A stretch of DNA of 64,000 nt from a bacterium (GTDB lineage Bacteria; SAR324; JACQKK01): NCBI GenBank assembly GCA_965205845.1, contig CBDBIG010000003.1, positions 212,453-276,452 of the forward strand. The letters run 5' to 3'. A program made the translations under genes and the position numbers. A model generated the notes under the pieces. That model ran no database searches and had not been told where the DNA came from. It saw only the letters and a list, made by a program, of their open reading frames with translations. Shown here in pieces: positions 5,181-33,571 of the stretch; position 1 is the first letter of the stretch; each line of letters opens with the position of its first letter.

Positions 5181-5885
5181 ATGAACTGGATTGGACACTA
5201 CCTTTGTGCATTACCTCAACCCCCTTTATTGCGTGCGGGGTCCGTGTTGGCAGACCTCGTGGGTATTCTCGACCGAAAACTTAAGCCACGCAACATAAAG
5301 CGCTGGGTGGCCCAATCTTCCATCAAACCCTCCGATGAAGTGCTGGCTTTGCTCAACGGCATGGTTTGGCATGAGGAGATTGATCGGCATTTTCATCGGC
5401 AAAATTTTTTTGTGCGCACCCAGTCCACCCTTTTTAAAACACTGCTCCAGGCTAATGGCCCTGCCAAACTCAAGCGGTTATTGCCTGCCCACGTGCTGGC
5501 AGAATTTTGGTTTGACTGCTATTTGGTAACCCAACATCCCGCCGTGCTCGTACATATACAACATGTGCTTCAACAGGCACATGAACCTTTACAAGCAATG
5601 CTATTGTGCGCACCCCACATTCAATGCCATGATGTTCTTACGCTACAAAAACGGATTGAACACAGCAATTTTGGCCAGGATTTTTGCTGCGAGCAAGGCC
5701 CTTTGCGACGGATGAATCGGATGTTGCCGCGCTTTGGCATGCGTGTGCTAACCCCCCAAGAAGAAAAGGCCACCTACGCATGCTGGATCTCCGTAAAAAT
5801 GGATGTGAGTGCCCACTTAGATGATTTTGTGATGCGCATGCAACGCTTGGCACTAACACAGGGCTGTGGCTTAACAACCCGTTAG
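5181..5885 (+). CDS. hypothetical protein with weak resemblance to acyl carrier protein phosphodiesterase (AcpH)
   Basis: N-terminus MNWIGHYLCA...AGSVLADLVG resembles AcpH (MNFLAHLHLA...SGNLLADFVRG). Beyond that the resemblance is weak. The 3' end runs into a 76-bp tandem array. Confidence 0.4.
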   Translation: MNWIGHYLCALPQPPLLRAGSVLADLVGILDRKLKPRNIKRWVAQSSIKPSDEVLALLNGMVWHEEIDRHFHRQNFFVRTQSTLFKTLLQANGPAKLKRLLPAHVLAEFWFDCYLVTQHPAVLVHIQHVLQQAHEPLQAMLLCAPHIQCHDVLTLQKRIEHSNFGQDFCCEQGPLRRMNRMLPRFGMRVLTPQEEKATYACWISVKMDVSAHLDDFVMRMQRLALTQGCGLTTR

Positions 5886-6203
5886 CATCGCATTGGATGA
5901 TTTTGTGATGCGCATGCAACGCTTGGCACTAACACAGGGCTGTGGCCTAAAAACCCATTAGCATCGCATTAGATGATTTTGTGATGCGCATGCAACGCTT
6001 GACACTAACACAGGGCTGTGGCTTAAAAACCCATTAGCATCGCATTGGATGATTTTGTGATGCGCATGCAACGCTTGACACTAACACAGGGCTGTGGCCT
6101 AAAAACCCATTAGCATTGCATTGGATGATTTTGTGATGCGCATGCAACGCTTGACACTAACACAGGGCTGTGGCTTAAAAACCCATTAGCATCGCATTGG
6201 ATG
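5820..6203. repeat. tandem repeat: 76-bp unit x5 plus a partial copy
   Basis: The unit gatgattttgtgatgcgcatgcaacgcttg[g/a]cactaacacagggctgtggc[t/c]taa[c/a]aaccc[g/a]ttagcatcgcatt[g/a]g recurs at 5820, 5896, 5972, 6048 and 6124. The first copy forms the last ~22 codons of the upstream ORF. Confidence 0.9.
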
Positions 6204-12483: not shown

Positions 12484-12845
12484 CCCAGCCCTTTTTATCA
12501 CTGGGTGCCCCTTGCAAAGCACTGGGGGACCCTTTTTATCACTGGGTGCCCCTTGCAAAGCACTGGGGGACCCTTTTTATCACTGGGTGCCCCTTGCAAA
12601 GCACTGGGTGACCCTTTTTATCACTGGGTGCCCCTTGCAAAGCACTGGGGGACCCTTTTTATCACTGGGTGACCCTTTTTATCACTGGGTGACCCTTTTT
12701 ATCACTGGGTGACCCTTTTTATCACTGGGTGACCCTTTTTATCACTGGGTGACCCTTTTTATCACTGGGTGACCCTTTTTATCACTGGGTGACCCTTTTT
12801 ATCACTGGGTGACCCTTTTTATCACTGGGTGACCCTTGCAAAGCA
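12484..12845. repeat. complex tandem array: 41-bp unit x4 followed by a derived 20-bp unit x~9
   Basis: The 41-bp unit is cactgggtgccccttgcaaagcactggggga-ccctttttat. It is followed by runs of cactgggtgaccctttttat, which is an internal-deletion derivative. The array lies immediately upstream of and overlaps the alr start region. Confidence 0.9.
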
Positions 12846-12867: not shown

Positions 12868-14136
12868 ATGCAACACCAAGCCACCAAGCAACGTCCAACC
12901 GTTGCAGAAATTCATTTAGACCGTTTAGAAGCAAATTGGCAATGTTTGCGCCAGGTGCACGGGAAAGGTCGCTTGATGGCCGTGGTGAAGGCCAACGCCT
13001 ACGGCCATGGGTTAGCAACCACAGCCCTATTTTTGCAAGGCTTAGGGCAGCACTATTTTGGAGTTGCTTTGCTTGATGAAGCCTTAACCCTGCGCCAAGC
13101 AGGCATTACGGGGCGTATTTTGGTGCTTGGACCGCCAGAACCCATGCGTTGGCATGACTATCAAACCCACAATATTGAGGCAACCATCCCTTCTCTAGCA
13201 CACCTGCAGCAAGCAGCCGCCCATTTAAACCCGCTGCGCAACAAGCCTGAAGCCACGCACACACCGAGCCAAATGGGCAGTGCATCCGCTTTGCGCATTC
13301 ATTTAAAGGTGGATACGGGGATGCACCGCGTTGGCTGGACGACCCCCCCAGATACACCACTGGTGACGTTACTCAAAGAAACCCCCAATTTGGTTGTGCA
13401 AGGTGTGTACTCGCACCTCGCTTGCGCAGACAACGTGAGGGCAACCCAAAACCAAGCCCAATACACGGCTTTCTTAAACTGGGTCGAGGCTTTTTTGCAC
13501 ATCAGCCAAGGGTTTTTTTCCCCCGAACTGCATTTTGCCAACAGCGCAGGCCTATTACAAAACCCTCGGTTTCATTTTGACTACGCCAGGGTGGGGTACG
13601 CATTGTGGGGGCCGTTGGCGTTTGCAACCTCTCAAAACCAGCCTCAAGCAAATGGGCAACTACGCAACGTGCTCGCTTGGCGTACACGAATCTCGCATCT
13701 AAAATGCCTCCCCCACCCAGGCAGGGTAGGTTATGGGGCCTTGCAAGAGGTAGATGCGGGTACATGGGTGGCCACACTGCCTGTGGGCTATGCAGATGGA
13801 TACCCGCGCAATATGTACCCCAAAGCCAAGGTCCTTATTCACGGAATACGTTGGCCTTTGGTGGGCATGGTCAGCATGGATCAAACCTGTGTGGTTCTGC
13901 CCGCACCCACACAATCTTCCACCACGGCCCATGCGCCTCAACATATTGCCTTGGGCGATGAGGTTGTTTTGCTTGGGGGACAAGGTGGGCAAACCATTTC
14001 ACCTCATGAAGCAGCACAGTGGTGCCATGAAATTGGCTATACCCTGCTATGTGGCATTCGAAGTCGTGTGCCTCGCGCATACCTTTACAACGGCAAACCT
14101 TGGATGCCGCCGCCATCACAGCCCCTCTCAGGGTAA
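12868..14136 (+). CDS. alr: alanine racemase
   Basis: PLP-binding motif AVVKANAYGHG. The C-terminal region has the pattern ...VSMDQ... and YGxxQ. An alternative upstream start lies at 12829. Confidence 0.85.
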   Translation: MQHQATKQRPTVAEIHLDRLEANWQCLRQVHGKGRLMAVVKANAYGHGLATTALFLQGLGQHYFGVALLDEALTLRQAGITGRILVLGPPEPMRWHDYQTHNIEATIPSLAHLQQAAAHLNPLRNKPEATHTPSQMGSASALRIHLKVDTGMHRVGWTTPPDTPLVTLLKETPNLVVQGVYSHLACADNVRATQNQAQYTAFLNWVEAFLHISQGFFSPELHFANSAGLLQNPRFHFDYARVGYALWGPLAFATSQNQPQANGQLRNVLAWRTRISHLKCLPHPGRVGYGALQEVDAGTWVATLPVGYADGYPRNMYPKAKVLIHGIRWPLVGMVSMDQTCVVLPAPTQSSTTAHAPQHIALGDEVVLLGGQGGQTISPHEAAQWCHEIGYTLLCGIRSRVPRAYLYNGKPWMPPPSQPLSG

Positions 14137-14690
14137 ACGTGCACATGCTTTGCGCCTTTCGTTTCCATGCTTTGCCACCGTTCGTTTCGCCGTTTATTTT
14201 TAAATGAAATATTTTTTGTTTTTTGCGTATTGACGCTGCCCTCAACCGCTTACCTCCCTTTTAAGAGCCGTGCAGGCTTGCTTAAAGGCTTTTTAGGGCT
14301 TGGAAGCTTGGGTGACGGGGCTTTTCTTGAGTAGCCAAACTGCATGGTTAAGTTATTGTAAAGACATTTTGTGCAGACAGTAAAAGCGTTGAGCACGCTA
14401 AATGTCGGTCATGGTTTGGGGGTCTTGTTTTCGCAAGTTTTCAAATACCTCTCGAGCGCGTAGCCCCCATTCCAAGCCCTGCAAAAAACAGCCTTGTGGT
14501 GTTTAAGCACGCGAAATGGGTTCACCAACTTGCCATCGATACCACCTTTGTACCTCGGAAATAGTGCGTGTGCGTTGTCGCGCAAAAAGCACCTGGGCTG
14601 CCCCCATAAAGGGCTCGCAATAGCATGTGTGTGGCACGGCATCAATAATACCCGCCAACCTTTTTTAAAAAAGCCTATGCGCTTAGCACT
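14137..14690 (-). pseudogene. dam-methylase-derived repeat element, copy d (inverted; 5'-truncated and frameshifted dam remnant plus conserved 3' flank)
   Basis: The reverse complement reads ...GIIDAVPHTCYCEPFMG.., ..DGKLVNPFRVLKHHK.. The same strand is about 90% identical to 43.9-44.4 kb and homologous to the dam gene at 32483-33250. The element ends against the alr stop codon. Confidence 0.7.
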
Positions 14691-15103
14691 GCTTTATCTC
14701 CGCCTTACCCGCCCCAACGCCCGCGCCGTTAATCTGTGCCTTGCGCCTCAATGGGGTGCTCCCGCGAAGGTCGGGAAAGGTGAAGATACCCTCTTTGAAC
14801 ATCACGGGTTGCCCTGTGCTTTGAATGTGGTGGCAAAGCATGGGAACGGTTACAGTCAAAATGGTGGGCATGAAAAGGGTAGCACTGTGCTTGGTCATAG
14901 GAGGGATTTTAAAAAAATTGGCCTAGCGTGTGCACTACACCATGCACATCAAAAATAACAAAACCTTTGATCCGGAATACTCAATTTACGACACGCTAGC
15001 GGTTTTTAAAGATAAGGATACAATTTTGGCTAAAAGACAAACCCAAGGCAGCAGGAATGGGAGTGTGGGGCAGACCATAAAACGAATCGCGCAATGGGGT
15101 AAA

Positions 15104-16138
15104 ATGCGGATGCCGTTCCCACAAACCCCAGACAAACTTGCCACAACCTGCTCTCGGGTGGGGTTGTTGTTGTTGTGCGCTGCAGTACTTGATGCTTGTT
15201 TAGGCGTGCAAGGACCTCCGCGTTTTGGCGCCAAAGGCCCTTTTGGTGTACCTCAAAACCATCTTATGGGGGGTTTTCAAGGTGATCGTTCGAATGAGGC
15301 CACGAGCAACGCAAATCCTTGGGGAAAACAAAGCCAAATCGCGCCATCCCTAAAAGATACCAACCCCAACTTGTGGCGTTCTAACCACCTGTGGATACGC
15401 CACTTTAGGCGGCATTATGGGACAAATAATACGGTGGCCCATGCTTTGCGAGCAGGAAAACCTTATTTGCCCACCATCCGCAAAATATTTCGCTCCCAAG
15501 GTTTACCCGAAGAACTTGCTTATTTGCCCATGCTTGAGTCCCTTTACGACGTAAACGCCAATTCGGGCAGTGCCGTGGGCATGTGGCAATTTACCCTACA
15601 GACGGCACGGCACGTGGGTCTAAAAGTGGGCTATGGCGTGGACGAACGCCGCGATTGGCGCAAAGCCACTGCAGCCGCCGCATACTACCTTAACCAGCTC
15701 GGAGCACGTTTTCATTATGACTGGGCACTGGCACTGGCCGCCTACAATTGTGGGCCTGGGTGCATTGAAAAAGCCATCAAAAAGCAAGGCAAACGCCGTT
15801 TTTTTCAGCTGCGTTTGCGCAAAGAAACCAGCGAGTATGTACCGCGCTTTGTGGCCATGTTGCAAGTGGCAAAAAGCAAACATCCCACTTTGCTGCTGGC
15901 AAAAGTTAGCCATTGTTGCCAGGGTGCTTGCCCCAAACAGGTATACAGGCAATGCCTTCTATCATGCAGGCAAACATACTTGTTAAAGGCTTTTGGCAAA
16001 ACCACCAGTCGCATCCCATGTGAACGAAAATCGCAAAGGATCGCAAAGGATCGCAAAAGGGATGCGAATGTTTACAGCCAGCCCCGCTTGCACAAAAACA
16101 AAAGGTTCGGCTCACTCCAATGGGTGTTGTTGGCATAA
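15104..16138 (+). CDS. lytic transglycosylase-domain protein (MltD/Slt-like); start uncertain (ORF opens at 14930), 3' end probably a run-on
   Basis: SLT catalytic region YLPMLESLYDVNANSGSAVGMWQF..AAYNCGPG. A signal-peptide-like MRMPFPQ..LLLLCAAVLDAC is present. Confidence 0.65.
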   Translation: MRMPFPQTPDKLATTCSRVGLLLLCAAVLDACLGVQGPPRFGAKGPFGVPQNHLMGGFQGDRSNEATSNANPWGKQSQIAPSLKDTNPNLWRSNHLWIRHFRRHYGTNNTVAHALRAGKPYLPTIRKIFRSQGLPEELAYLPMLESLYDVNANSGSAVGMWQFTLQTARHVGLKVGYGVDERRDWRKATAAAAYYLNQLGARFHYDWALALAAYNCGPGCIEKAIKKQGKRRFFQLRLRKETSEYVPRFVAMLQVAKSKHPTLLLAKVSHCCQGACPKQVYRQCLLSCRQTYLLKAFGKTTSRIPCERKSQRIAKDRKRDANVYSQPRLHKNKRFGSLQWVLLA

Positions 16139-18923: not shown

Positions 18924-19952
18924 GTGATACGCATAGGGATCGTTGTGCCACGAAAAAAGCCCCACAAACTATTGTTGGCTCACAAGCGCCAGGCCCCGCA
19001 AAAGACATTTAAGAATCATCCCCAAAAAGCACGCTCTATTCCAGCACTCAGCAACGCTTCCTTTGCCCTTATGACCACGCCAGCAACCACCTTACCAAAC
19101 ATTGAATTCCACCCTGTGCTTGCGCTGCGTCCCACAGAAAAAATTCGCTTTCATGAATACCCCGAGCAAGCGCGCACCCAACGTCTCACAAAGCGCTTGA
19201 CCAAAGATGGCCTCCTACGCCATCCCCCCATTGTGAGCGATATTGGCGGTGGCGATTTGCTGCTTCTCGACGGTGCCAACCGCGTAAGCGCCTTAAAAGC
19301 CTTGGGGTGTGAAGAAATACCCGTGCAACTGGTGAACTATGTCAGCCCTCGCATTATGCTTAAAGGCTGGCATCACTTGCTGCTTGAAGCAGAAGAATTG
19401 AACTTACGCCAGGCATTCGAGAACCTCCCAAATTGTCAGTTAAAAGCCATTAGGGCCGATCAGGTCGATGCCAAACTGGCTTTTCATCAAGCCCTGGCTG
19501 TGCTGGTCGAAGCCAATGGGAGCTGCTGGGCTCTGCAAGCGCAACCAGGCCTACCAAACCAAACCAACACCCTCATGCAACGGGTGAATACCATGCACCA
19601 AGTGGTAACCTGCTACGAAGGCAAAACCCACCTAGAACGCATCAAATTGGCCGACTACACCACCTTAACACAAGCCATGGAAGGCAGCACGACACGTAGT
19701 GTGGTGTTGTTTCCCACGCTACACAAAGAAGAATTGATGCAATTGGTACGCAACAATGCCATGATGCCGACGGGTCTCACGCGCCACCTTATTCCCGGGC
19801 GTGCACTGGGCTGCAACCTGCCGTTAACATTTTTGCTCCCTCCTTCCACCCAATCCAGCCGCCACGACTTCTTCAATGCATGGTGTAATACTTTAATAAG
19901 CAAAAGCCGCATGCGCTTTTATGAGGAATCGGTTTTTTTACTCGACGAATAA
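18924..19952 (+). CDS. ParB/sulfiredoxin-like nuclease-domain protein (start probably downstream, near 19069)
   Basis: PPIVSDIGGGDLLLLDGANRVSALKALGCEEIPVQLVNY is a ParB N-terminal-type motif (cf. DGHHRxxA). The remainder has no recognisable domain. Confidence 0.45.
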   Translation: MIRIGIVVPRKKPHKLLLAHKRQAPQKTFKNHPQKARSIPALSNASFALMTTPATTLPNIEFHPVLALRPTEKIRFHEYPEQARTQRLTKRLTKDGLLRHPPIVSDIGGGDLLLLDGANRVSALKALGCEEIPVQLVNYVSPRIMLKGWHHLLLEAEELNLRQAFENLPNCQLKAIRADQVDAKLAFHQALAVLVEANGSCWALQAQPGLPNQTNTLMQRVNTMHQVVTCYEGKTHLERIKLADYTTLTQAMEGSTTRSVVLFPTLHKEELMQLVRNNAMMPTGLTRHLIPGRALGCNLPLTFLLPPSTQSSRHDFFNAWCNTLISKSRMRFYEESVFLLDE

Positions 19953-20234
19953 CCTCCCTCTTATCGCCAAAATGTGATTGCAGGCAAAACCAGTGCCTCC
20001 CTTTTTACCAACGTGGTCGCTTAGGGCTAAGGGAGGTTTTAAAAAAGGGGATCAGAAACAACCCTACAAGCACAGCCAAAGCCCGATCAAAAAACCACGG
20101 CCACGGCATCGCTGCTGCACGGCGCTTTGCAGGCAGCATTCCCTTCAATGGACAGTGCCAACCACGGCGGGCGCTAAACAAACCCCCTTAAAAACACCGT
20201 TTCATACAGGTATACAGAACTCCTTATCAGCAAT

Positions 20235-20386
20235 TTAAACTTCCCTGCCAACCAAGCGGCCTAACAAAGGAAGTAAGCGATTGATGACAACATCAAAACG
20301 CAAAAAATATCCCGTTCAAGATTAACACCAAAGCAACCAGTCGCACGCCATGTGTCTCAAAGTCGCAAACCATGTGTCCCTTTACA
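20235..20386 (+). repeat. dam-derived repeat element, copy a (3'-terminal ~150 bp only)
   Basis: gtaagcgattgatgacaacatcaaaacgcaaaaaatatccc...ccatgtgtctcaaagtcgcaaaccatgtgtccctttaca matches the 3' flanks at 44248-44425 and 33316-33331. The copy ends 11 bp before the stop of the ExbB-like gene. Confidence 0.65.
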
Positions 20387-20396
20387 CCGCGACCCT

Positions 20397-20984
20397 CTAC
20401 AAGGGGTTTGTCATAAAAATAATTTTGGTGAGGCGTTGGGCTTGGGCTTGCCAATGTTGACCAAGGCGTTCGAACAAGTGATGAAAGGCGAGAAGCGGGA
20501 GGGCACCGACAAGCCCTGCTTGGGTCGTGGAAAGTGCATAGCCTAGACCTTGGGCAAGGGCTTCGCGTGAGGTGTGATGGCTAAGTACTTGAAAAGACTG
20601 GGCGAGGCCAATGACAGTGCCTAGCAAGCCAAGCAAAGGCAAAATGCTAGCCAGCCAGCCAATGGTCGAAACGCGTGTTTCTACTTGGGCTAAGGCAGTG
20701 CAAAAGGCGTTTTCGGCGGTGATTTGTTGGTTTTGTGGATGCGGACCAGCTTGCCATGTGGCATGCAGCATTTGATGCAAAGGGCTAGGTTGGCGGCGTT
20801 GATTTGGTGGATTATGATTGAGCCAGTCCAGTAAATTCTGGCGTTCTTTAATGCGACGCAAAGGGGCGTCCATGCGTTGCCAGCGCAGCCACATCCAAAG
20901 GCGCTCAACAGCCAAGGCAAAACCCAAGCCTGCCAAAAGTGCAATCAGCGGCAATACCCAGCCATTGTTCAACCATTCTCTCAT
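20397..20984 (-). CDS. MotA/TolQ/ExbB-family proton-channel protein, orphan (alternative start 21077)
   Basis: IGWLASILPLLGLLGTVIGLAQSFQVL...AQGLGYALSTTQAGLVGALP aligns with the ExbB IGAISPFVGLFGTVWGIMNSF...PGIAEALLATAIGLVAAIP region. No ExbD/TolR/MotB partner ORF lies downstream. Confidence 0.7.
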   Translation of the reverse strand: MREWLNNGWVLPLIALLAGLGFALAVERLWMWLRWQRMDAPLRRIKERQNLLDWLNHNPPNQRRQPSPLHQMLHATWQAGPHPQNQQITAENAFCTALAQVETRVSTIGWLASILPLLGLLGTVIGLAQSFQVLSHHTSREALAQGLGYALSTTQAGLVGALPLLAFHHLFERLGQHWQAQAQRLTKIIFMTNPL

Positions 20985-21163: not shown

Positions 21164-22639
21164 TTACGTGCGGTGGCCTAAAAATAAACGGCGTAGTTGA
21201 TGAAGTTCCATGCGTGTTTGGGGTTGGTTTTCAAGCATTTTTGCTTGCGTTTGGGAAGCCCCCACAACGGTCGATGCGCTGCGCCCACCCAGCAAAGCAG
21301 CAATTTCTTGGTAGGGCAAATGGCTAAATTGGCGCAAGCAATAAATGGCCATGCGCCTTGCGCGGGTAATGTTTGCACCCCGTTTACGGCTGCTTAGGTC
21401 TTGTGCTTGCACCTGAAAATGCTTGCAGATGATGCCCATAATATGCTGTGGGGCAAGGGGTGCCAAATGGGTTTGTCGTTTACGGTCGCGTAAGAAGCCT
21501 TGACACAAAGTTTTGACCTGCTGCAAAGAAAACGGCGACCACGCCGCTTCAAGCCGTTGTTGTGCACTTAGCCGTACCACTGCACCATGAATTTGGCGTA
21601 CATCCTCTGCAAGGTGTTCTTCAAGGTAGCGTAAGGCCTCGGGGTGAATTTTGACGCGCTCTTTTTCGAAAAAAGCGTGCAAAAGTTGGCTTCGCCCTTG
21701 CTGATTGGGGGGGTGAATGGGAAGCACCAACCCCATGTTAAGGCGCGAGTACAAGGCCTCACTTAGGTGTGGGAGGGCATCGGGCAAGCAAGTGCTGGTG
21801 AGTACCAATTGGCGCCGCGCCGCATGCAGGGTATCGATGCAATGCAGTAGGGTTTCTTGCGAGGTCGGGCTAATGAGCAGGTTTTCAATGCCATCGAGCA
21901 AAAGCACTTGAACTTGCTGTAAGGTGTGCTGCCATATATGGCTCCGGCGGCGGCGAATTGCCTCCAGTGTGCGGAGCTTAAAGTGCTCGGCACTCATCAG
22001 CATGAGGTGCTCGGGGTGAGCGGGCCGTAAAGTACTGCTTAAAGCATGGCGCATCGCATAGAGCAGATGGGTTTTGCCCACCCCTGGGGGACCGTAAAAC
22101 ACCAGGGGGTTCCATAACGCAGCTTGTTGTTGGCAAACATCCATGGCGATGCTTAGGGCATTTTGGCTACCTTCGTGGGCAATAAAGGAATCGAAACGCA
22201 ACTTTTCAAGCCAGGCGGGGTGCTCTTGGCCGCTGCCAGCAAAAAGGGAGGCACTGGTTCGAGGGTGCGTTTGGGGGGGAGGGCTTGCAGGCAGTTTGGG
22301 CACAGTCTCAACGGACCCAGAGTTGGCTGCATCCCTCTCACCCCAGCAAAGGGTAACGGGCGGCGCAACCTGCCATTGAGGAAATCCGACCTTCAGTGCC
22401 TCAACCAGCAAAGGGATATACAGGTTTTTAATGCGCTCGCGCAAAAATGGACTATCAATGCCAGACAAACCCACCGCACTGGGCGCAAGAGACACCAGGC
22501 GCAAAGGCGCAAGCCAGGCGTTTTTCTCCTCGGCATCGAGCTTAACAGCCAGCACACCCAATGCTTCCCGCCAGCCTGCAGCCAAAGTCGGCGCATCGCA
22601 TAACACAGCAGATGTCACCCCCCTTTTACCGTCACCCAT
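21164..22639 (-). CDS. dnaA: chromosomal replication initiator protein DnaA
   Basis: Domain I (WREALGVLAVKLDAEEKNAWLAPLRLVSL). AAA+ Walker A NPLVFYGPPGVGKTHLL and box VII/sensor regions. Domain IV HTH ANITRARRMAIYCLRQFSHLPYQEIAALLGGRSASTV. Confidence 0.85.
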   Translation of the reverse strand: MGDGKRGVTSAVLCDAPTLAAGWREALGVLAVKLDAEEKNAWLAPLRLVSLAPSAVGLSGIDSPFLRERIKNLYIPLLVEALKVGFPQWQVAPPVTLCWGERDAANSGSVETVPKLPASPPPQTHPRTSASLFAGSGQEHPAWLEKLRFDSFIAHEGSQNALSIAMDVCQQQAALWNPLVFYGPPGVGKTHLLYAMRHALSSTLRPAHPEHLMLMSAEHFKLRTLEAIRRRRSHIWQHTLQQVQVLLLDGIENLLISPTSQETLLHCIDTLHAARRQLVLTSTCLPDALPHLSEALYSRLNMGLVLPIHPPNQQGRSQLLHAFFEKERVKIHPEALRYLEEHLAEDVRQIHGAVVRLSAQQRLEAAWSPFSLQQVKTLCQGFLRDRKRQTHLAPLAPQHIMGIICKHFQVQAQDLSSRKRGANITRARRMAIYCLRQFSHLPYQEIAALLGGRSASTVVGASQTQAKMLENQPQTRMELHQLRRLFLGHRT

Positions 22640-23506
22640 CTGCTTCCATTTTGTTTTCTGGTATTTGATTGTCCTGCCATCACAAAGGTATCGTGCACCC
22701 CGCGGGGCAAAATGCTCGCCGAATTCATAGGCCCACGCAAGTGGTTGCGCGATACCTCAAAAACCGTTGCCCCCACGTTAGGGCGCAACGATTTGCCACC
22801 CTCGATGCTAGCACGGGAGCTTGCAAAAGCCTTCATGTTTTTCACTATCTTCCTTTTTTTCACCAGATGCATCCCTCTTTTTATCGTTCCATTTTGGGCC
22901 TTGCCTAGCAGAGCATGTCTTTAGAGAGGATTGTGCCCGGACACTTGCTTTGACACTGGTCAAAAAGAAATGGTTTTATGTGGTTTTTCAACAGTTTACG
23001 GGCAGTGTGTTTGCGCCAAAAGGGTGGTGTAAATTGTCCCGCCAAAAAAACGGTGTAATGCGGGTTTGCGCGTTTTTGGGACACATGGGCTTACACTCGG
23101 TACGCGCTTCATTCGAAGGGTTTTAGAAGGGGGCAAACTGCGTTCGATAAGGGTAAGTTCAAATGCCGCTTTGCAATTCGCAAAAAGGCTTACCACCAAA
23201 TGGAAAGGGTTCTTCCCTTTAGGGTGGTCATAAACCCCTTGGCGCGCAGCGCTCTGGCAGCAGATAACCCCGCATGGCGGTTAGGGGGGTGCAAAATGCA
23301 GCCCTTCGACCCACGCTCTCGCTCTGCCCCGGCTTGTTTTAAGGCGGTTTGGGTAAAGTTTGCGCTTATGCTTCGCCAGCCTGCCGCAATGCCCCCTGCC
23401 AAGGTGCTTTTGCTGTGCGCCAGCATTATAACCAGCAAGGTTTCCGCGCCGCGCCACACCAAAATGCCAAGGGTGGCACCCCCCAGTGCCCATAAAAACC
23501 CTTGGC

Positions 23507-23551
23507 GCAACTGGGGCAACTGGGGCAACTGGGGCAACTGGGGCAACTGGG
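23507..23551. repeat. simple sequence repeat (GCAACTGGG)x5
   Basis: Five perfect 9-bp repeats are followed by a degenerate sixth (gcaacgata). They sit in the region upstream of dnaA. Confidence 0.9.
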
Positions 23552-23583
23552 GCAACGATAGCATTAACTTGCATTAACGCGCA

Positions 23584-24057
23584 TTAAATGCGCCACAAAG
23601 GCATACAAACCAAGGCTTGCCTCGCATTGGGGGGCTTGGCGCTGGGGGTGTAACACGCCCAACCCTTGCTGGCTAAGCCATTTGGCAGCATCTTTGCCAT
23701 GTCTTTGCCATCTGCGCATACGCTGGCGTGCAGGCTGCGGTTTTTGCGCTTTGTGTTTACTAAAAAAATATCATCGGCGCGTTCAAGCAGGCCACGCATG
23801 GCATCGCGCGCGCTGCTGGCCTTGCTTAAGGTGGGTTCGCGTAGTTTTGGCGTTTGCAACCCCACAATTTGCACCTGAACCCCCTCGCCTAAAATGGGGT
23901 GGTGACTGGGCAGGGTAAACCTGCAGGTGTTGCCATCATAACAACCGACTATGTGCGCCTTAAACACCCTTAAAGAGCGGTTTTGGCTTAACCAAATCTC
24001 TGCAAATACAAGGCTTAATGTTATAAAAGCCAGTAAAAACAACGCTATATCTCGCAT
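23584..24057 (-). CDS. SNase-like (staphylococcal/thermonuclease-type) nuclease, secreted
   Basis: N-terminal signal/TM segment. HIVGCYDGNTCRF...VQVQIVGLQTPKLREP matches the SNase active-site region (D..GDT...R..GIDAPE). Confidence 0.6.
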   Translation of the reverse strand: MRDIALFLLAFITLSLVFAEIWLSQNRSLRVFKAHIVGCYDGNTCRFTLPSHHPILGEGVQVQIVGLQTPKLREPTLSKASSARDAMRGLLERADDIFLVNTKRKNRSLHASVCADGKDMAKMLPNGLASKGWACYTPSAKPPNARQALVCMPLWRI

Positions 24058-24199
24058 GTGCCACCCACCTTACCCACGCTAGGTTTTTTTACCCCAGTGT
24101 GACCGTAAAGTGGTGCCAACAATGTAGCGATTTTGTGAAATTTCTAAGGAATAATGCGTTTGAAGCGTAAAACCAAACCCCCAAAACCACCCCGTAAAA

Positions 24200-24228
24200 G
24201 TTCAAAGCTAGGTGCTCTAGCTTTGAAC
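24200..24228. promoter_or_regulatory. perfect 12-bp inverted repeat with 5-bp spacer (GTTCAAAGCTAG-gtgct-CTAGCTTTGAAC), followed by a direct repeat of agctttgaactc
   Basis: Seen directly in the sequence between the SNase gene start and the Mu B-like gene. It resembles an operator or terminator. Confidence 0.4.
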
Positions 24229-24477
24229 TCAGCTTTGAACTCAATTTTTCGCCCTTTTCATGGATCAAACCCTTGTTTTGAAAATACTTTTGCGTGATTG
24301 GCCTAGAGATAAAAAATAATCTACCATTGCCACTCCTTTTTTTTTAAACCGCCCTGGGTTGCACGTAAATCACGGGCACAACCTGTTCTATTTCGTCCAT
24401 GTTTTCTTACAAGGTGTAGGGTTTTCGCTCCCCGGTTTTGGGGTCGGGGTCGTCCCATTTTTGGAGCACCAGCCAGG

Positions 24478-25450
24478 TTGCCCCCCCTTCTTTGCGCTTT
24501 AATTCTTTCACCAATCCCAAACGGGCAAGGCTGTTCGGCTTTAGCACAAACACCACATCGCCAAGCCCAGCAGTGCCTGTCCCAAGCCGATGCGGCCAAG
24601 CGGATTGGGTGCGGGGCAACAGCGCTTTCGCGCTGGCTTAACGGCAAGTACACGGGCGATAACGCCGCCCTTGAAGCCAAGGTTTGCCAATGGCTAGAAG
24701 ACCAAGCCTGCCAAACCGCCTTTTTGCCCAGCAAGGGCGCAGACTGGATAGAAACCCCCACAGCCCGCCAAATCGGCATGGCCATTGCCTACGCCCACCT
24801 AAGCCGCGACATCGCGGTGGTGTGCGGTGGCGCAGGGGTTGGCAAAACCATCACCGCCCAGCACTACGCCCAAACCCGCCCTAATTGCTGGGTGTGCACA
24901 ATGGTGCCCAGTTTTGCCAGCGCCCCTGCCTGCCTTAAAGCCCTTTTGTTTGCCCTTGCCCCAAGCCAGCGCGCGGACGGACGCGGGGGAGATGTGGTTT
25001 ACCGCATGCTTCTCAGCCTATCTCTCAAAAAAAGACGCCCTGCTGATTATAGACGAGGCACAGCACCTTACCCGCCCCGCCTTGGAATGCCTACGCGCTT
25101 TGCACGATGCCACTGCTTGCGCCCTGGTGTTCATGGGCAACGAGAGCGTCTACACCCGGATGAGCGGCCCGCGCTCGGCAGAGTATGCCCAGTTGTTTAG
25201 CCGCGTTGGCAAGGTGTTAAACCCCAAAAAAGCCCGCCGTGCCGATGTAGAGGCCATTGCCCAAGCATGGGGAGTAAGCGAGCAGAAAGCCCTTGGCTTT
25301 TTAATCAAAATTGGTCACGGCCACGGCGCACTGCGTGAGGTTACCAAAACCCTACGCTTGGCCAGCCTGGCGGCAAACGGGGCACGGCAGGCCCTTAGCC
25401 TAAGCCACCTTAAAACCGCTTATTCCGAGCGGGGAGGAGTTAGCGAATGA
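24478..25450 (+). pseudogene. Mu B-like DNA transposition ATPase, frameshifted near 24990-25020
   Basis: Frame 1 holds the N-terminal HTH (GKYTGDNAALEAKVCQWLED, cf. Mu B DKYNGDNERVSQMLQRWLE) and Walker A (IAVVCGGAGVGKTITAQHY). Frame 2 holds Walker B (LLIIDEAQHL), VFMGNESVYTRMSG and EYAQLFSRV...KKARRADVEAIAQAW. All of these track Mu B. Confidence 0.75.
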
Positions 25451-26186
25451 ACCCGATCAAGCCCAAAAACAGGCGTCTGCGTGCACCTGCCTGTTCGCAT
25501 TTATACGCGGCACACAAGCAGCCCCATGTTTTGCTTAAATAAATAAAGGAGACCCGTCATGAAAATTGACATCAACAGTTTAAGCGCAGCACGACAAAAA
25601 TGGCATCTCAAAGGGGAGACGCGCCTATAAGGCATGGGTAAAAAACCTCTTTTTTTTGCGTGGCCAAGGCAGGAGGGGGTTTGTTCGCCCCAGCAACCGA
25701 CCCCGCGCAGGGCTACAACGCTGGCAAGGAGGGCTATAGATGAAAACGCCAAAGGTTTATGTTGGCGCACGCTTAGAAAAAGGGATGCCCCCCCTTTAAA
25801 CCACACCCTGACACCCTTAATAAGGAGTCCCCACATGCAAGCCCAAACCATCCCCCAGGTTGGAATATGCATCACGCTATAAAAAAAGCGACCCTTGCGC
25901 ATGAGGTGGCGCTATGAGTTTTTTGCAAACGCTTTGCGACGCCGTAGTGAGCGGATTTGGGTTTTTTATGGGTGGGTTCGCTGCCTACGGCATGTTGGAA
26001 ATGTGCGAGGAGGGCCCATGAAAACCAAATCCTTTTGCCCCAACGAGCAAGCCTACCGCAATAAAAAATACGCGGCCCTGCACGCCCAATCGAGCAAAAT
26101 GGGCTTTCGGCGATGCCCAATACCGCGGGCTGGGTAAGCAACTACGGCGTGCGCAGCGCAAAAAACCTGAGCACCTTAAAACGGGC

Positions 26187-27143
26187 TTGCCCGTGCGCGG
26201 AGGCTTGGCTCGCGTGGCCGTTTGGAGTTACCTCTTTAAGGCCTACGCGCTCAAAGACTGGGCAGCCTTTTTAGAGGTGTTTGGGATGCCCTTGCGCATT
26301 GGGCGTTATGGGCCAGGGGCTAGCGATGAAGACAAGCGCATCCTGCGTCAAGCGGTGATCAACCTTGGGAGCGATGCGGCTGCCGTGTTGCACGAGAGCA
26401 TGCAAATAGAGTTTCAAGATGCCGTGCAGGGCCGGGGCGGGGAGGGCCTGTTTTTGGCAGCGGCCGAGTTTTGGGATAAGCAAACCAGCAAGGCGGTGCT
26501 TGGGCAAACCGCCAGCACCGAGGGCACCCCTGGCAAACTGGGCAACGATGCCGCCCAAATGGAGGTGCGCCAAGACATACTGCGCGCAGACGCCGCCGTT
26601 TTGGCAGCCACCTTAAACCGCGACCTGGTCAAGCCTTTCATTGACCTTAATTTTGGCCAGCCCCCCGATAACCGCTATCCGCGAATTGTGTTGCCTTTGC
26701 CTGAGCCCGACAAAATGGAGGCAATCGTTGATGCCATTGCCCGCCTTGTGCCCCTTGGCTTGCGCGTTGACCAGCACACCCTGTGCGAGTTGCTCGGTTT
26801 GCCCGAACCGGGCTCCGATGCCCAGTTGCTTGGTACGCCAGCCAGCGCAACCCAAGCCAGCAACCAAGCCCTAGGGCACATATTAACAGCCCTTGCCCAA
26901 GCAACACCAGCCCAAGCGCAAAGCGAATTAGATGCCTTGACAGAGGAAACAACCCAAAACTGGCAGCCCTTGCTGGCGCCCTTGCTTGATCCCTTGGTGC
27001 AAGCCCTTGGCCAAGCGAAGAGCCCAACAGACCTCGCGCGCTTGCTCGCCCAAGCCTTGCCCGAGAGCGATCCGGCCCCCCTTGCCAAGGCGATTGCCCG
27101 CGCCACCTTTAAAGCGCGTGGCATGGGTGATGGGGAAGGCTAA
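26187..27143 (+). pseudogene. Mu gp29-like portal protein (DUF935), N-terminally truncated
   Basis: Only about 318 aa, corresponding to the C-terminal half of a ~500-aa portal (WSYLFKAYALKDWAAFLEVFGMPLRIGRY..). The ORF opens with TTG directly after a stop. Confidence 0.65.
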
Positions 27144-27148
27144 AAACC

Positions 27149-29242
27149 ATGCCCACACCCAAGCCAGGCTTTCATTTTACACCCACCCCGCCCAAAGAAG
27201 CCCTTGCCTACCTCAAGGCCAAAAAACTAAAACCCGCCTTTGACTATCGCGATGTTTGGCGTGAGGAGCACGCCTTGGGCTTTAGCGTGGCCAAGGCAAT
27301 GCAGTTGGATGTGTTGCGTGCCATCCGCGATGGTCTTGCTGAGGCGCTGGCCAAGGGCAAAACCTTTGAGGGTTTTAAAAAAGACCTCATCCCCACCCTC
27401 CAACAAAAAGGATGGTGGGGCATAAAAGGCAAAAAAGACCCCAAAACGGGCAAGATAGAGCAAGTGCGCCTTGGGAGCCCGCGCCGTTTACGCACCATTT
27501 TTTGGGCCAACACGCGCACCGCCTATGCTGCGGGGCAGTGGGAACGCATTGAGCGCGAAGCAGCTACCCACCCCTACCTGCGCTATGAACTGGGCCCCAG
27601 CAAGGAGCACCGTTTGGAGCATCAGCACTGGAACGGGCTTATTTTGTCCAGCAGCGATGCTTGGTGGAACGCCCACATGCCACCCAACGGCTGGGGCTGT
27701 AAGTGCCGCGTCAGGCTTTTAAGCAAGGCCGAGGCAGGGCGCTTGGGTGGCCCAGGCAAACCGCCCACCAACAAAACCCGCCCTTGGCTTAACAAGCGCA
27801 CAGGCCAAATTGAACGCGTGCCCCAAGGCATAGACCCAGGCTGGGATACCAACCCAGGCAAGGTACGCAGCCAAGCCTTGGCCAACATGCTGGCGGCAAA
27901 AAGCGCAGATGCGCCCGTTGCAACCCTCGGCCCGATCCCCCTGCTCGAAGAGCGGGCGGTCATGAAAAAAAAGTTAAGCAAGGCCAAGGGCAGCAACCAA
28001 GGGGGCGTCTATCAAGGGGCAGACGGCATCAAGCGCTACGTCAAGTTTTACACCGACCCTGGCCAAGTCTACGGCGAGGCGGCGGTCAATGCAATCTATG
28101 CCCAGTTGGCGGTCAATGCGTCCAAAAGCGCCTTGGTTGCCCGCAAACAAGGGGGGCTTGCCCTGGCCACCGAGTGGATTGAAGGGGCAGCCCCAATCGC
28201 CTTGGACGAACTAACCCAAGCCAAGGCAAAAAAACTGCTTGACGGGGTGGCGGCAGATGCTTGGCTGGCCAACTGGGATGCCTTGGGGCAAACCTTTGAT
28301 AACGTGGTTTGGCAAAAAGGCGCCCCCGTGCGGATTGACAACAGCGGGGCGCTCTTGTTTCGAGCCAAAGCGGGGCGCAAAAATACCAAGGCACTGGCCA
28401 CAATAGGCGAAGCCGAGGGCTTTTTTCACCCTGCCACCAACCCCACTTACGCCAAGGCAATGGAAAAAGCGGGGGTGCGCATTTACGAGGCGCTGGGGGA
28501 TCACTGGCTTAAGACCGAGCGAGCGATTAGCAACCTAAGCAAAAAAACCAACGCCTTTGCCGACCTCTTGCCCCCCGTGCCAGGGGTGCCCGAGCCCGAG
28601 CGCCTTGCCATGCTACAAACCTTGCAAAAGCGTGCTATGCTCCTCAAGGGGGTGTCGCGCAAGGTGCGTGCCTTTGCCAAATTGCCCGTCCACGAGCAGG
28701 GTTTGATGAACCTCAAAGGCTATCAATACCAAATCTTGCTTGGGCAGGCGAACACAAGGGCGAAGGAATCGGGTGTCGTGCACCGTTTCTCCGAGCCCGA
28801 GTTGGCTGCCTTGCACGGCTACACGGTCATCGATTATAAACCGATTAACCAGGCCAAGCGCGGGAAACTGCCCAAAGCCCTGGGAGAGGAATACGCCCAC
28901 TACACCAAAACCATCATCGCGGGGCTGGCAAAACTCCCCAACTACCGGGGGAAGGTCACCCGAGGGACGACCCTGCCCGAAAGTGAACTGGCCAAAATTA
29001 AGCCAGGCAAGGTTTGGACACCCAAAGGCTTTACCAGCACATCCACGGGTAAAGCCTTTGGTGGGCCGCATCGGCTGAAAATACAGAGCCGCACGGGCAA
29101 GGAGGTATCTTGGATATCCCGGCACGCGCACGAAAAAGAGGTCCTCTTTAAACCAGGAACCAGGTTTCTCGTTAAGGAACGAGTACGAAACGGCAAAACA
29201 ACTTTGATAAAACTTGAAGAGGTTAAAGACGATGATAAGTGA
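27149..29242 (+). CDS. MuF-family head-morphogenesis protein fused to a C-terminal ADP-ribosyltransferase (R-S-E class) toxin domain; intact 697-aa ORF
   Basis: The N-terminal Phage_Mu_F region is FWANTRTAYAAGQWERIE...HQHWNGL...PPNGWGCKCRV. The C-terminal ~170 aa carry the catalytic triad of C2/C3/iota-type ARTs: YRGKVTRG (Arg), GFTSTSTGK (STS) and HAHEKEVLFKPGTRFLV (ExE followed by LF..G..F.V). Confidence 0.8.
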   Translation: MPTPKPGFHFTPTPPKEALAYLKAKKLKPAFDYRDVWREEHALGFSVAKAMQLDVLRAIRDGLAEALAKGKTFEGFKKDLIPTLQQKGWWGIKGKKDPKTGKIEQVRLGSPRRLRTIFWANTRTAYAAGQWERIEREAATHPYLRYELGPSKEHRLEHQHWNGLILSSSDAWWNAHMPPNGWGCKCRVRLLSKAEAGRLGGPGKPPTNKTRPWLNKRTGQIERVPQGIDPGWDTNPGKVRSQALANMLAAKSADAPVATLGPIPLLEERAVMKKKLSKAKGSNQGGVYQGADGIKRYVKFYTDPGQVYGEAAVNAIYAQLAVNASKSALVARKQGGLALATEWIEGAAPIALDELTQAKAKKLLDGVAADAWLANWDALGQTFDNVVWQKGAPVRIDNSGALLFRAKAGRKNTKALATIGEAEGFFHPATNPTYAKAMEKAGVRIYEALGDHWLKTERAISNLSKKTNAFADLLPPVPGVPEPERLAMLQTLQKRAMLLKGVSRKVRAFAKLPVHEQGLMNLKGYQYQILLGQANTRAKESGVVHRFSEPELAALHGYTVIDYKPINQAKRGKLPKALGEEYAHYTKTIIAGLAKLPNYRGKVTRGTTLPESELAKIKPGKVWTPKGFTSTSTGKAFGGPHRLKIQSRTGKEVSWISRHAHEKEVLFKPGTRFLVKERVRNGKTTLIKLEEVKDDDK

Positions 29243-29414
29243 GGAAATGAAGCAATTTATTGAAGAGTCACGGGAATATGACCGCCTGCTTAAAGAAGGC
29301 AAACTCAAGCCTGTGTCAAGGCACCTGCAGGCCAAAATGGACAGTGGTGGGCCCTTTGCGGACGAAATTCACGATGCTCCCCCCGCCAAACCCAAACCGG
29401 GCAAAAAAGGCTAA
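29232..29414 (+). CDS. small ORF, translationally coupled to the MuF-ART gene; candidate immunity/antitoxin protein
   Basis: Its ATG overlaps the toxin stop (gATGAtaagTGA). It encodes 60 aa, acidic at the N-terminus and basic at the C-terminus (MISEEMKQFIEESREYDRLLKEGK...). No homology is recognised. Confidence 0.35.
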   Translation: MISEEMKQFIEESREYDRLLKEGKLKPVSRHLQAKMDSGGPFADEIHDAPPAKPKPGKKG

Positions 29415-29516
29415 GGCAAGTGTGGTTATTCACCCCAAAGGCCTTTCTTTCTATTGTGGCGCACACAGACGACCCCGCCAACTTGCGCCTGGTGCGTGCC
29501 CGCCGCCCTGGTGAGA

Positions 29517-29690
29517 TTGAGGCGCTTTTTCCTGTTGCGCTCGTGCACACCACTCCCGACGCCGATTTATCCCTATTGAGGCGCTTTTTCCTGTTGCGCT
29601 CGTGCACACCCCCAATGCCGATTTATCCCTATTGAGGCGCTTTTTCCTGTTGCGCTCGTGCACACCACTCCCGACGCCGATTACCCCTTT
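29517..29690. repeat. tandem repeat: ~57-60 bp unit x3
   Basis: The unit ttgaggcgctttttcctgttgcgctcgtgcacacc[actcccgac/cccaat]gccgatttatccctat recurs at 29517, 29576 and 29632. Confidence 0.85.
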
Positions 29691-29908
29691 CGCGCATGCC
29701 TGCCAGCCCAGCAAAGCGCCTGCCTTGCACAGCGTCTGGGCTGTAATGGCCAACCAATACGAGCAAGGGCGCTAAAACGCTTTTAAGCCCTTTATCCCCC
29801 TCCTCTAGCCCAACTCCCCAGCCAAACATTTTGCAACGCTTTTCAACGCGTTTAAACGGGGTTTAAACGGGGGTATTTACCCCTGGCAAAAGTTTGCAAA
29901 GGGGGTAG

Positions 29909-30497
29909 TTGCCCCTGGCAAAAGGGTGCACTAGCGTAGCCTTTTTTTGTGTGTTTTGCATGGCTAAACTAAAAGGCATGGAAACACAAATCCCCCAACA
30001 AGCCGAAATCCCAGCCCTTTGCATGGCGTTGGATGGTGCCCTAGCCGCCATCGGGCAGGGCGAAGTGCCCGAGTGGATACCGCTTTTGCCCAAGGGGCCG
30101 CGCATTCAAGGGCGCACAGGGCGTGAGTGGCAGTTGGCAGATGTACAAAAGGTGATAGCCGCCAGTTTTCGCAATTTGCCCAAAATCCCAGTTGACTGGA
30201 ACCATGCCACCGAGAAGTATGGCGCAACCAGCCCGCAAACCCAGAAAGCTGCGGGGTGGATTGTGGCGATGGAAGCGCGCCCTGATGGGGTATGGGGCAA
30301 AGTGGAATGGACAAACGGGGGGGCGCATGACAGAAGAGATTGGCGACAGGCGCAAAGAGCGCGTCCAATGGCTCGGGCAGGTGGCAAGGGGCCTGATCAG
30401 CCTAGGGGCAGCGATTGAAGAGCCCCGTTCAGGAGGCGCGCCTGCGGTGCAAAGCACGCCCCGCCAGTTGACAAGAGACGCTTTGCGAGGGCTTTAA
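29909..30497 (+). pseudogene. Mu gpI-like protease/scaffold protein, frameshifted at a G7 homopolymer (30315-30321) and C-terminally truncated
   Basis: The frame-1 ORF (29909-30418) and the frame-3 ORF (30192-30497) overlap. The N-terminal region (WQLADVQKVIAASFRNL..PVDWNHAT..AAGWIVAMEARPDGVWGKVEWT) is Mu-I-like. The frame switches at acaaacGGGGGGGcgc. Confidence 0.5.
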
Positions 30498-30501
30498 AAA
30501 A

Positions 30502-31143
30502 ATGGCAGGCGTGCAAATTGAGGCCGACCTAAGCGGGCTAAAAACACTAAACCAGCGCATTGCACGCTTGGGCAAGGTGGATAAGCGTAAACTGCTAAAC
30601 GCCTTGGGCGCAGAGATGGAAAGCCAAACCAGGCGCAGGTTGGCGGAGGAGAAAGAGAGCCCCGAGGGAGAACCGTGGAAGGCGTGGTCGCCAAAACATG
30701 CCCAAACACGCCACGGCGGGCAGGGCTTGTTGCTGGGCGAAGGGGCGTTATTGGATAGCATCACCTTTGCCGTGCCCAACGATGGGGCGGTGTTGGTGGG
30801 TAGCAACCTTGTCTACGCTGCCATTTTGCAGTTTGGCGGGGCGGAGGTGGGCAAACCAGGCCTGCCAGCGCGCCCCTACCTTGGGCTTAGCGCCGCCAAT
30901 CGCCGTGGCTGGTGGGGTGGATGTAGCGGCAGTGGCATTTGGCAACACACCCGCGCCAAAAACACCCAGGCCAATGCCCTTGCCCTCGCCGATGAAGCCC
31001 GCCAAGCCCTAGCATGGCTCACCAAAGACGGCCTCGCCACCAGTTTGGAAGTGGAAGCGGTGAGGCAAGCAGGGCAGATTGCCTTGCAGGTGCGTGTAAA
31101 GGGCGTTGCAAGCGCGTTTAAAGGAGGTGTGTATGCCGTTTAA
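30502..31143 (+). CDS. Mu gpG-like phage virion morphogenesis protein (N-terminal ~150 aa), with an unrelated C-terminal extension
   Basis: IEADLSGLKTLNQRIARLGKVDKRKLLNALGAEMESQTRRRLAEEKESPEGEPWKAWSP...VYAAILQFGG is the virion-morphogenesis (PF05069-type) pattern. Confidence 0.6.
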   Translation: MAGVQIEADLSGLKTLNQRIARLGKVDKRKLLNALGAEMESQTRRRLAEEKESPEGEPWKAWSPKHAQTRHGGQGLLLGEGALLDSITFAVPNDGAVLVGSNLVYAAILQFGGAEVGKPGLPARPYLGLSAANRRGWWGGCSGSGIWQHTRAKNTQANALALADEARQALAWLTKDGLATSLEVEAVRQAGQIALQVRVKGVASAFKGGVYAV

Positions 31144-31834: not shown

Positions 31835-32062
31835 CGCTGCGGGCGTTGGGCATACAAGGCGGGGATGAGGAAATGCAGGAGCATAGGCACTCATATCAGA
31901 TTGGGGATCGTCCAGTAAACGGGGGAACCCGATCTTACGTGGGGTGGGAAGATGTACCTTATGGGCCACTTTACACTGACAACTACGGACTAGGCCAAAG
32001 CGGGAACATGCAGCCCTACCTGCCGCTTCACTACATCATCAAAACTTAGTAAAGGTTTTTTT

Positions 32063-32470: not shown

Positions 32471-32482
32471 AGGAAGTAAATC

Positions 32483-33250: not shown

Positions 33251-33571
33251 GAGGCCATGAAAACCGTAAAAGTGGCCTCGCCATACTCACAACATCGCAA
33301 GGATAAGGAAAAAAACATGTGTCCCTTTACACCCGCAAGCCCCTTTCATCGCCGTGGGTCATTGAATATTTTACGCAAAAAACATGCCGAAACAAAGAGA
33401 CCCCAGAATGACCAGTGTAAAAGCATGTGGCCCAAAGTGTAAAAGCAAGTGAACGTTTACAAGGATACTATTTTGTATGGTCAAGACCCAGGGTTTGCTC
33501 AGACCATAGGAGGTGAGCATTCACAACGGGGGCAACACCTTGCAGGTTCGAGTTTGGTAGGGTAGGGATGT

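Follow-up and report, generated by a model that had tools for sequence, protein, structure and literature searches.

Right-end remnants of a Mu-like prophage family with a terminal dam pseudogene as the probable source of a dispersed repeat in a SAR324-related genome

TG/CA ends are typical of phage Mu. A 5-bp target duplication is likewise a hallmark of Mu (PMC8705779), and in the Mu-like prophages FluMu and Pnme1 an adenine methylase gene occupies the position of mom (PMC3299994). Besides, in engineered mini-Mu units the left and right ends suffice for transposition when MuA and MuB act in trans (PMC3145075). Here, we analysed a 64,000-nt stretch (the window) of contig CBDBIG010000003.1 from a bacterium of the SAR324 lineage, in which an initial annotation had described a repeat derived from a dam methylase gene in four copies: A (14137-14690, inverted), B (32483-33250), C (43875-44425) and D (20235-20386). 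We consider it likely that this repeat family represents the right-end region, composed of a dam pseudogene and attR, of a Mu-like transposable prophage family with repeated insertions in this chromosome. The window is a dense but otherwise ordinary mobile-element graveyard, and a Mu-like prophage family with a terminal dam is of a known kind; the locus is notable mainly for the copy number, the density of end relics and the evidence that defective derivatives were copied.

Like Mu and Mu-like prophages, the family combines a MuB ATPase gene with portal, F, I, tail-completion, gp46 and baseplate-J genes in Mu order, TG...CA termini with inverted arrays of ~22-bp sites, a 5-bp duplication, insertion at unrelated sites and a DNA-modification gene in last position at the right end. 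It differs from them in that the copy in the window is devoid of MuA and riddled with deletions, a terminal dam pseudogene replaces mom, at least 14 young copies and dense old relics stand against the usual one to three copies per genome, and the host belongs to an uncultured lineage whose nearest named relatives are SAR324/Candidatus Lambdaproteobacteria metagenome-assembled genomes (MAGs). FluMu of H. influenzae and Pnme1 of N. meningitidis are alike in having an adenine N6-methyltransferase gene at the extreme right end (PMC3299994), yet every dam copy seen here is a pseudogene, and the relatives L004 and L005 discussed below carry dam together with mom. Laboratory mini-Mu (LR), which has Mu ends only, lacks the genes A and B and is moved by MuA/MuB in trans (PMC3145075), resembles the prophage to which copy B belongs and possibly copy A; the derivatives considered here are natural, however, and their mobilisation is inferred from shared deletion junctions. 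Miniature inverted-repeat transposable elements (MITEs) and solo-end insertion sequence relics are similarly short, non-coding, multi-copy leftovers of DDE elements in intergenic DNA, some of them beside gene ends, but the source in the present case is a phage of 35-40 kb, the lengths are heterogeneous and most copies are single-ended.

A self-BLAST of the window confirmed that the four copies are real, with 77-82% identity between the main pairs and E-values of 1e-73 to 1e-123. A (14159-14614, minus strand) matches C (43887-44335) at 82.1% over 464 bp and, through 14256-14665, B (32527-32934) at 81.8% over 417 bp; B (32578-32933) and C (43887-44245) are 77.4% identical over 363 bp, and D matches C in two pieces (20252-20325, 82%; 20347-20386, 95%). 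The common 3' motif of the initial annotation, which belongs to the transposon terminus, stands for B, C and D, which contain the 16-mer CATGTGTCCCTTTACA exactly (at 33316-33331, 44410-44425 and 20371-20386, respectively), but not for A, whose terminus has diverged to CATGTGCACGTTTACC. None of 100 shuffles contained four or more matches to the 16-mer at up to three mismatches. The sequences flanking the copies are unrelated and the orientations differ, A being inverted, which identifies them as dispersed copies and excludes the segmental duplication of a single locus that had been named as the refuting case. Four is not the family total, since weight-matrix and nhmmer profile scans revealed further relics (see below), and A and C, instead of reaching the end of dam as had been proposed, lose their homology to B at about codon 150.

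Copy B turned out to be the right end of a 10.5-kb, internally deleted and transposase-less Mu-like prophage (prophage B, 22932-33461, + strand), which retains both ends and whose Pfam and PHROGs matches follow the Mu gene order. Its termini are inverted TGT...ACA (TGTGCCCG... at 22932, ...CGTTTACA at 33461). Both positions were set first and the flanks read afterwards, and these flanks hold a perfect 5-bp target duplication, AGGAT, at 22927-22931 and 33462-33466, for which a chance match would be expected in about 1 of 1024 cases. This combination of TGT...ACA termini, inverted ends with multiple sites and a 5-bp duplication is characteristic of Mu-type DDE transposition. The proposal that a Mu-type prophage end was the source of the repeat is thus sustained by gene order, termini and duplication, the last of which the initial annotation had suggested looking for. 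A MuB-type transposition ATPase gene (24478-25450, + strand; PF09077 Phage-MuB_C, 4.3e-23) is split by a frameshift into two adjacent open reading frames (ORFs), both of which match phrog_296 (5e-39 and 3e-30). It is followed by late-gene fragments (26187-31834, + strand) of a Mu portal (partial), a MuF-ADP-ribosyltransferase, Mu I (partial), a tail-completion/gp46 fusion and a truncated baseplate J, which correspond to the domains Portal_Mu, Phage_Mu_F, Mu-like_Pro, Phage_tail_S/GP46 and Baseplate_J in Mu order, all partial except F. The GC content amounts to 0.55-0.61 across the prophage block, whereas it is ~0.50 outside. Neither the ORFs nor the six-frame translations of 22932-24620 contained a MuA, rve or Mu-transposase domain, and the lack of a MuA-like domain to the left of MuB marks prophage B as a non-autonomous derivative. 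Its decay proceeded via many separate internal deletions rather than a single polar one. Within the prophage, MuF (27149-29242, + strand; PF04233) is fused to a C-terminal ADP-ribosyltransferase toxin-like domain (PF03496/PF01129), and a 56-bp unit is repeated three times in tandem at 29516-29682. Outside, a DnaA-like gene with Bac_DnaA and DnaA_C domains (21164-22639, minus strand) starts ~290 bp from the left end of B.

The initial annotation had let B diverge from the other copies immediately beyond 33331. At this point lies an internal transposase-type site (33308-33331, + strand; GAAAAAAACATGTGTCCCTTTACA), which scores 22.6 with a position weight matrix (PWM) trained on 11 right-end-type sites; in the following, 'untrained' denotes a site or relic outside this training set. 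However, nine further C-terminal dam fragments from the same genome, found in a protein collection and representing seven distinct ORFs, read through the position corresponding to 33331 (...KNMCPFT|PASPFHRRGSLNIL...MWPKV), and 33366-33461 of B is again colinear with the terminal ~100 bp of A, D and a relative (65-69% identity; z = 7.6-10.2, above all shuffles). Judged from these alignments, the true terminus of B is 33461 (...GAACGTTTACA), not 33331. The right end of B (33366-33461, + strand), supported by alignment, z-scores and PWM, comprises a ACGCAAAAAAC box followed by the sites R2 (33416-33439) and R1 (33438-33461). The same box precedes R2 and R1 generally, and the right ends of A, B, C and D close with these two abutting ~22-bp direct repeats, R2 ending in ...CAAAG and R1 in ...TTTACA, with the common core GCAAA(G/C)CATGTG. 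C keeps three sites, while A and D each lack a different one.

On the opposite side, the left end of B (22932-23095, + strand) was recognised from minus-strand PWM matches, from reading the sequence and from alignment with two other left-end-type sites; it starts with L1 (22932-22955; TGTGCCCGGACACTTGCTTTGACA) and contains two more site-like stretches at ~22997-23020 and ~23072-23095. Besides L1, the PWM detected untrained inverted sites at 51317 (TGTGCCCGTTCACATGCCTTGCTA) and 14854 (reverse complement; TGTAACCGTTCCCATGCTTTGCCA). The left-end-type sites at 22932, 14854 and 51317 align with one another and share TGT(G/A)(C/A)CCG..CATGC.TTGC. Prophage B displays TG...CA termini with multiple ~22-bp putative transposase sites in inverted orientation at both ends. 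PWM matches at 15428-15451 and 15533-15548 fall into the conserved SLT domain of the mltD-like gene and were taken as chance, and a pseudo-left-end at the inner boundary of C was rejected by eye against the L1 consensus.

The dam pseudogene of B, a D12-type adenine methyltransferase gene (32483-33300, + strand; PF02086, three-frame translation), is the last gene before the right end. It is 51% identical to the intact homolog P0002; its reading frame changes twice and contains an in-frame stop, and DPPH takes the place of the DPPY of intact relatives, so that neither an intact ORF nor the DPPY motif is left. A and C are frameshifted as well and lack the C-terminal half. Their homology to B breaks off around dam codon 150 (B 32936-32945) and is not regained before B 33366-33461: a single ~420-bp deletion, common to A, C and D with the same junction (...GCGGCCCTGCAAAGG|AGGTAAGCGATTGATGG...), has removed the C-terminal half of dam and the internal site at 33308-33331. 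In addition, the dam sequences of A and C have the same 1-nt insertion, which causes a frameshift and is absent from B and from intact homologs. The shared deletion and the shared frameshift indicate that dam was already dead in the progenitor. The inner boundaries differ between the copies, lying at dam codon ~5 in A (14695), at codon ~30 in C (43883-43887) and at ~20234 in D. A tract of ~77 nt (A ~14532-14608, minus strand; C ~43893-43969, + strand) shows a single mismatch, while the rest of the A-C alignment is ~80% identical, which points to gene conversion between relics or to a phage ancestor of mosaic composition.

The terminal position of dam is seen in relatives, too. One ENA metagenome (ERZ26693861) is the origin of both P0002 (51% identity) and P0003 (46%), the nearest intact homologs of Dam. 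The gene order of the relative L005 is Mu I, gp36, gp44-like, dam and mom, followed by R2 and R1 (...TTTTTTACA), and its right terminus (...CAGTCGCAAAGCATTTGCGTCAAAG TCGCAAAGCATTTGCTTTTTTACA) matches the right-end profile with E = 1.2e-8; L004 contains a com-like zinc-finger ORF, read by eye, followed by mom and dam. Among the 80 nearest Dam homologs in IMG/VR, 48 are no more than 1.5 kb away from the downstream contig end, as opposed to four that are as close to the upstream end, a polarity that suggests that Dam proteins of this clade are typically encoded by the last gene of their phage. At L005:9215-11638, the right end adjoins an inverted, heavily deleted Mu relic with a portal fragment, which retains a left-type terminus ...GCATTTGCTTGAGCACA (...GAGCACA at 11638); hence, relatives show the same kind of graveyard and the same nested decay as the window. 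As to the host, GpmI is 60% identical to proteins of Candidatus Lambdaproteobacteria/SAR324 MAGs and 78% identical to its counterpart on contig L006 of ERZ26693861, which spans gpmI but not the relic loci. Among further searches with nucleotide queries, relic C had no blastn match among 50,697 phage records, a scan of genome contigs for AAMCATGTGTCCCTTTACA returned a single, unrelated Bacteroidales match, and a scan of viral contigs for the 16-mer returned two (L002 and L003), of which L002 is AT-rich and unrelated.

That the family is multi-copy in its genome, as the initial annotation had anticipated, was borne out at the protein level. Exact-sequence look-ups revealed at least 14 MuF-ADP-ribosyltransferase paralogs with at least 90% identity, of which 13 are full length, distributed over four large contigs, which documents at least 14 young prophage copies in the source genome. 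The assembly contains no second GpmI copy with at least 90% identity, and the MuF copies are therefore paralogs within one genome rather than co-assembled strains. Some of these copies share their defects. The 152-aa C-terminal MuB ORF of the window is identical on three contigs of the genome, the junction of the tail-completion/gp46 fusion (...YLGLSAAN|RRGWWGG...) is common to four paralogs, where intact 152-aa tail-completion versions continue ...NQDLESVIEDF, and the baseplate-J truncation is common to two. Such shared junctions argue that internally deleted derivatives were propagated, either by transposition in trans or by gene conversion. Shared junctions of this kind occur in A, C and D and in four plus two protein paralogs, gene conversion being a possible cause, and the copying of internally deleted, transposase-less derivatives to new loci can be regarded as partly demonstrated.

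In total, six right ends (A, G, D, B, C and F2) and three left-end-type sites were counted in the window, the latter being the one opposite A, that of B, and F1. Relic A (14132-14695, minus strand) comprises dam codons ~5-150 with the frameshift, the deletion junction, R2 (14154-14177) and R1 (14132-14155). Facing it is a left-end-type terminus (14790-14854, minus strand) with the site TGGCAAAGCATGGGAACGGTTACA at 14831-14854 on the + strand (PWM 24.6, untrained) and ~40 bp of similarity to the left-end-type site at 51317. This site lies 135 bp beyond the dam fragment, so that the '5' truncation' of A is probably an internal deletion and A probably keeps both ends. A and the facing site (14132-14854) cover 723 of the 793 bp of the gap between alr and the mltD-like gene, and the alr stop codon TAA (14134-14136) sits inside A's terminal GGTAAAC. 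Relic G (15963-16076, + strand) consists of a right end only, with a small internal tandem duplication, and was recovered by PWM and nhmmer (E = 2e-5, untrained); it aligns with F at z = 14.6. G is embedded in the 3' end of the mltD-like ORF, whose final ~45 codons read through the relic (16000-16138). Promoter and terminator scans around A and G gave background levels. Relic D (20234-20386, + strand; E = 1.9e-13) carries the deletion junction, the box, R2 (20341-20364) and R1 (20363-20386), and it ends 10 bp before the exbB-like stop codon (20397-20399). The gap around D spans 444 bp, not ~800 bp as noted earlier, and the 'parB-like' label of the gene at 18924-19952 lacks Pfam support, this gene having no Pfam match at the thresholds used.

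Relic C (43883-44425, + strand), with dam codons ~30-150, the frameshift of A and the deletion junction, has the most complete right end, with sites at 44317-44340, 44378-44401 and 44402-44425. It fills 543 of the 769 bp of the gap upstream of galU, from which it is separated by 166 bp. The 12 bp beyond its terminus (44426-44437, TGCACATTTACA) repeat the terminal motif and may be what is left of an earlier right end that served as the insertion site of C. The 'lysE' label on the other side of this gap also lacks Pfam support: the ORFs at 42583-43227 and 43220-43822 are two tandem paralogous membrane-protein ORFs, again without a Pfam match at the thresholds used. Finally, a left-end-type relic, F1 (51317-51381, + strand; TGTGCCCGTTCACATGCCTTGCTACC...), was assigned from PWM and alignments, and a right-end relic, F2 (51572-51733, minus strand; terminus at 51572), from a PWM score of 20.2 (untrained), nhmmer (E = 1e-3) and a ~150-nt alignment to D. 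With 723, 543, 153, ~114 and ~160 bp for the small relics and 10.5 kb for B, the elements are far from a uniform short length. B firmly combines both ends with the lack of a transposase and A has its left-end-type site, while C, D, G and F2 lack the two ends together. The adjacent host genes alr, exbB-like and galU are intact.

The termini, the site arrays, the 5-bp duplication of B, the Mu gene content and order, and the terminal dam here and in relatives can all be read off directly. Beyond that, two-ended DDE transposition of the MuA/MuB type would move the family: a transposase may bind the ~22-bp site arrays (core GCAAAGCATGTG), inverted at both ends, cut after the terminal ...ACA and join the ends to the target with a 5-bp stagger. 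A, C, D, G and F would then be fossils of older insertions from a sub-lineage in which dam was already broken, and the small copies would have been whittled down by internal and one-sided deletions. The outermost termini, such as those of A at the alr stop codon, of D near the exbB-like stop codon, of G in the mltD 3' end and of C upstream of galU, may have been kept as they adjoin host genes, where deletions across the boundary would harm the host and be selected against. Such a constraint at the edges would leave a constant outer end and a variable inner truncation without any polar mechanism. Defective copies would presumably have moved in trans, like laboratory mini-Mu.

Other mechanisms that leave one constant end fit less well. 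In IS91/ISCR elements, terminal inverted repeats and target duplications are absent, and a fixed target tetranucleotide adjoins the constant end. One-ended rolling-circle transposition had been put forward initially; in a form like that of IS91/ISCR, or as one-ended events of the Tn3 type, it would start from one fixed end with variable stops and give rise to nested 5' truncations, and indeed C, D, G and F2 show a constant end, a variable inner boundary and no recognisable second end. Yet both ends are present in inverted orientation in the best-preserved element, B, together with a 5-bp duplication, the copied DNA comes from the late region of a phage, the flanks of the constant end differ (AGGAT, CCGCG, TGCAC, GCCAG) and share no target tetranucleotide, and no transposase or Rep-type (HUH) family was found among the scanned ORFs of the window, which were covered systematically from ~110 aa upwards; we find this explanation hardly credible. 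The other initial proposal, that Mu-type adjacent deletions acting from one prophage end made the truncations, agrees with the Mu-like nature of the elements and with their single constant end. Intramolecular Mu transposition, however, deletes or inverts DNA outside the element and leaves the element whole, which is the opposite of what is seen here, where the element itself is truncated next to intact alr, exbB-like and galU genes, and where B bears many separate internal deletions rather than a polar one. It therefore appears very unlikely as well. Segmental duplication of one locus, or chance similarity, has nothing in its favour but the similarity itself and next to no probability, given the unrelated flanks, the differing orientations, the self-BLAST E-values and the enrichment of the terminal motif over shuffles. 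A retrotransposition-style 5' truncation was also considered and dismissed: there is no reverse transcriptase and no 3' tail, the DNA derives from the late region of a DNA phage and the ends are of the DDE type.

Closer to the insertion of a Mu-like prophage family is the doubtful but possible alternative that the short copies are, or descend from, a MITE-like mini-Mu of up to ~0.7 kb (left end, dam fragment and right end) that was moved in trans by MuA/MuB and never was a 35-40-kb phage. The deletion junction of A, C and D and the frameshift of A and C suggest that a defective progenitor was copied, both end types of A lie within 723 bp, B combines intact ends and a perfect duplication with the lack of a transposase, identical internal deletion junctions recur in four and two paralogs on different contigs, the relic density is high with six right ends per 64 kb, and the engineered units introduced above need only their two ends, with MuA and MuB in trans (PMC3145075). 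On the other hand, there is no left end near C, D, G and F2, and the inner boundaries all differ. A protein search for sister copies with the 154-aa ORF spanning the left junction of A returned only the ORF itself, that is, no second copy with this junction. Moreover, a phage can tolerate a dead accessory gene, and shared dam defects hence require no mini element. The candidate duplication of A (CTCAG vs GTCAA) matches at 3/5 positions only, which may speak against a mini-Mu and likewise against the favoured insertion of Mu-like prophages, although so diverged an element makes the comparison uninformative.

Several further points weigh against the latter. The window has no transposase gene, and the enzyme is therefore inferred. 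The left-end assignments of A and F1 rest on short sites with an alignment score of 43 against a shuffle maximum of 42, and six right ends versus three left ends constitute a mild excess that edge protection does not predict, detection power differing between the two. If all insertions were full length, an extraordinary number of 35-40-kb phages would have had to insert to leave six relics in 64 kb, and gene conversion between copies could have spread the shared deletion junctions. In favour of prophage insertion, the nhmmer profile recovered two right-end relics that were untrained (E = 2e-5 and 1e-3). A more far-reaching idea, which we entertain only tentatively, is that a transposable phage acts as a high-copy transposon family and spawns natural mini-Mu derivatives from 10 kb down to ~0.7 kb. 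In that case, mini-Mu derivatives would have been amplified in trans and then fossilised, with the dam-attR repeats as a phage counterpart of MITEs that would occupy a considerable part of the long gaps between genes. If the shared junctions reflect trans-mobilisation, this would represent natural mini-Mu amplification and bear on how phages become simple transposons.

Irrespective of how the small copies moved, the analysis defines the ends of a Mu-like phage family that had not been characterised, from a little-studied, uncultured lineage related to SAR324/Lambdaproteobacteria. The relics account for several unusually long intergenic gaps in the window, and phage termini have remodelled host gene ends (the alr stop and the mltD-like ORF). 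In annotation, they should be masked as mobile-element debris and not be called dam.

In Rfam searches, the window yielded only a tRNA (60094-60165). It does hold other repeats. A 20-bp unit (CCCTTTTTATCACTGGGTGA) occurs 17 times in tandem at 12489-12837 and reaches the annotated alr start at 12829. Further tandem arrays are located at 5820-6203 (76 bp, five units), 57369-57715 (87 bp, four units) and 59588-59934 (113 bp, three units); in these three and in the array within prophage B (29516-29682), matches amount to 90-98%. Besides, the 5' part of a solute-binding-protein gene (47781-49148, minus strand) is enclosed by a 157-bp direct repeat with 81.5% identity (47781-47936 vs 49204-49360), which has no relation to the Mu family.

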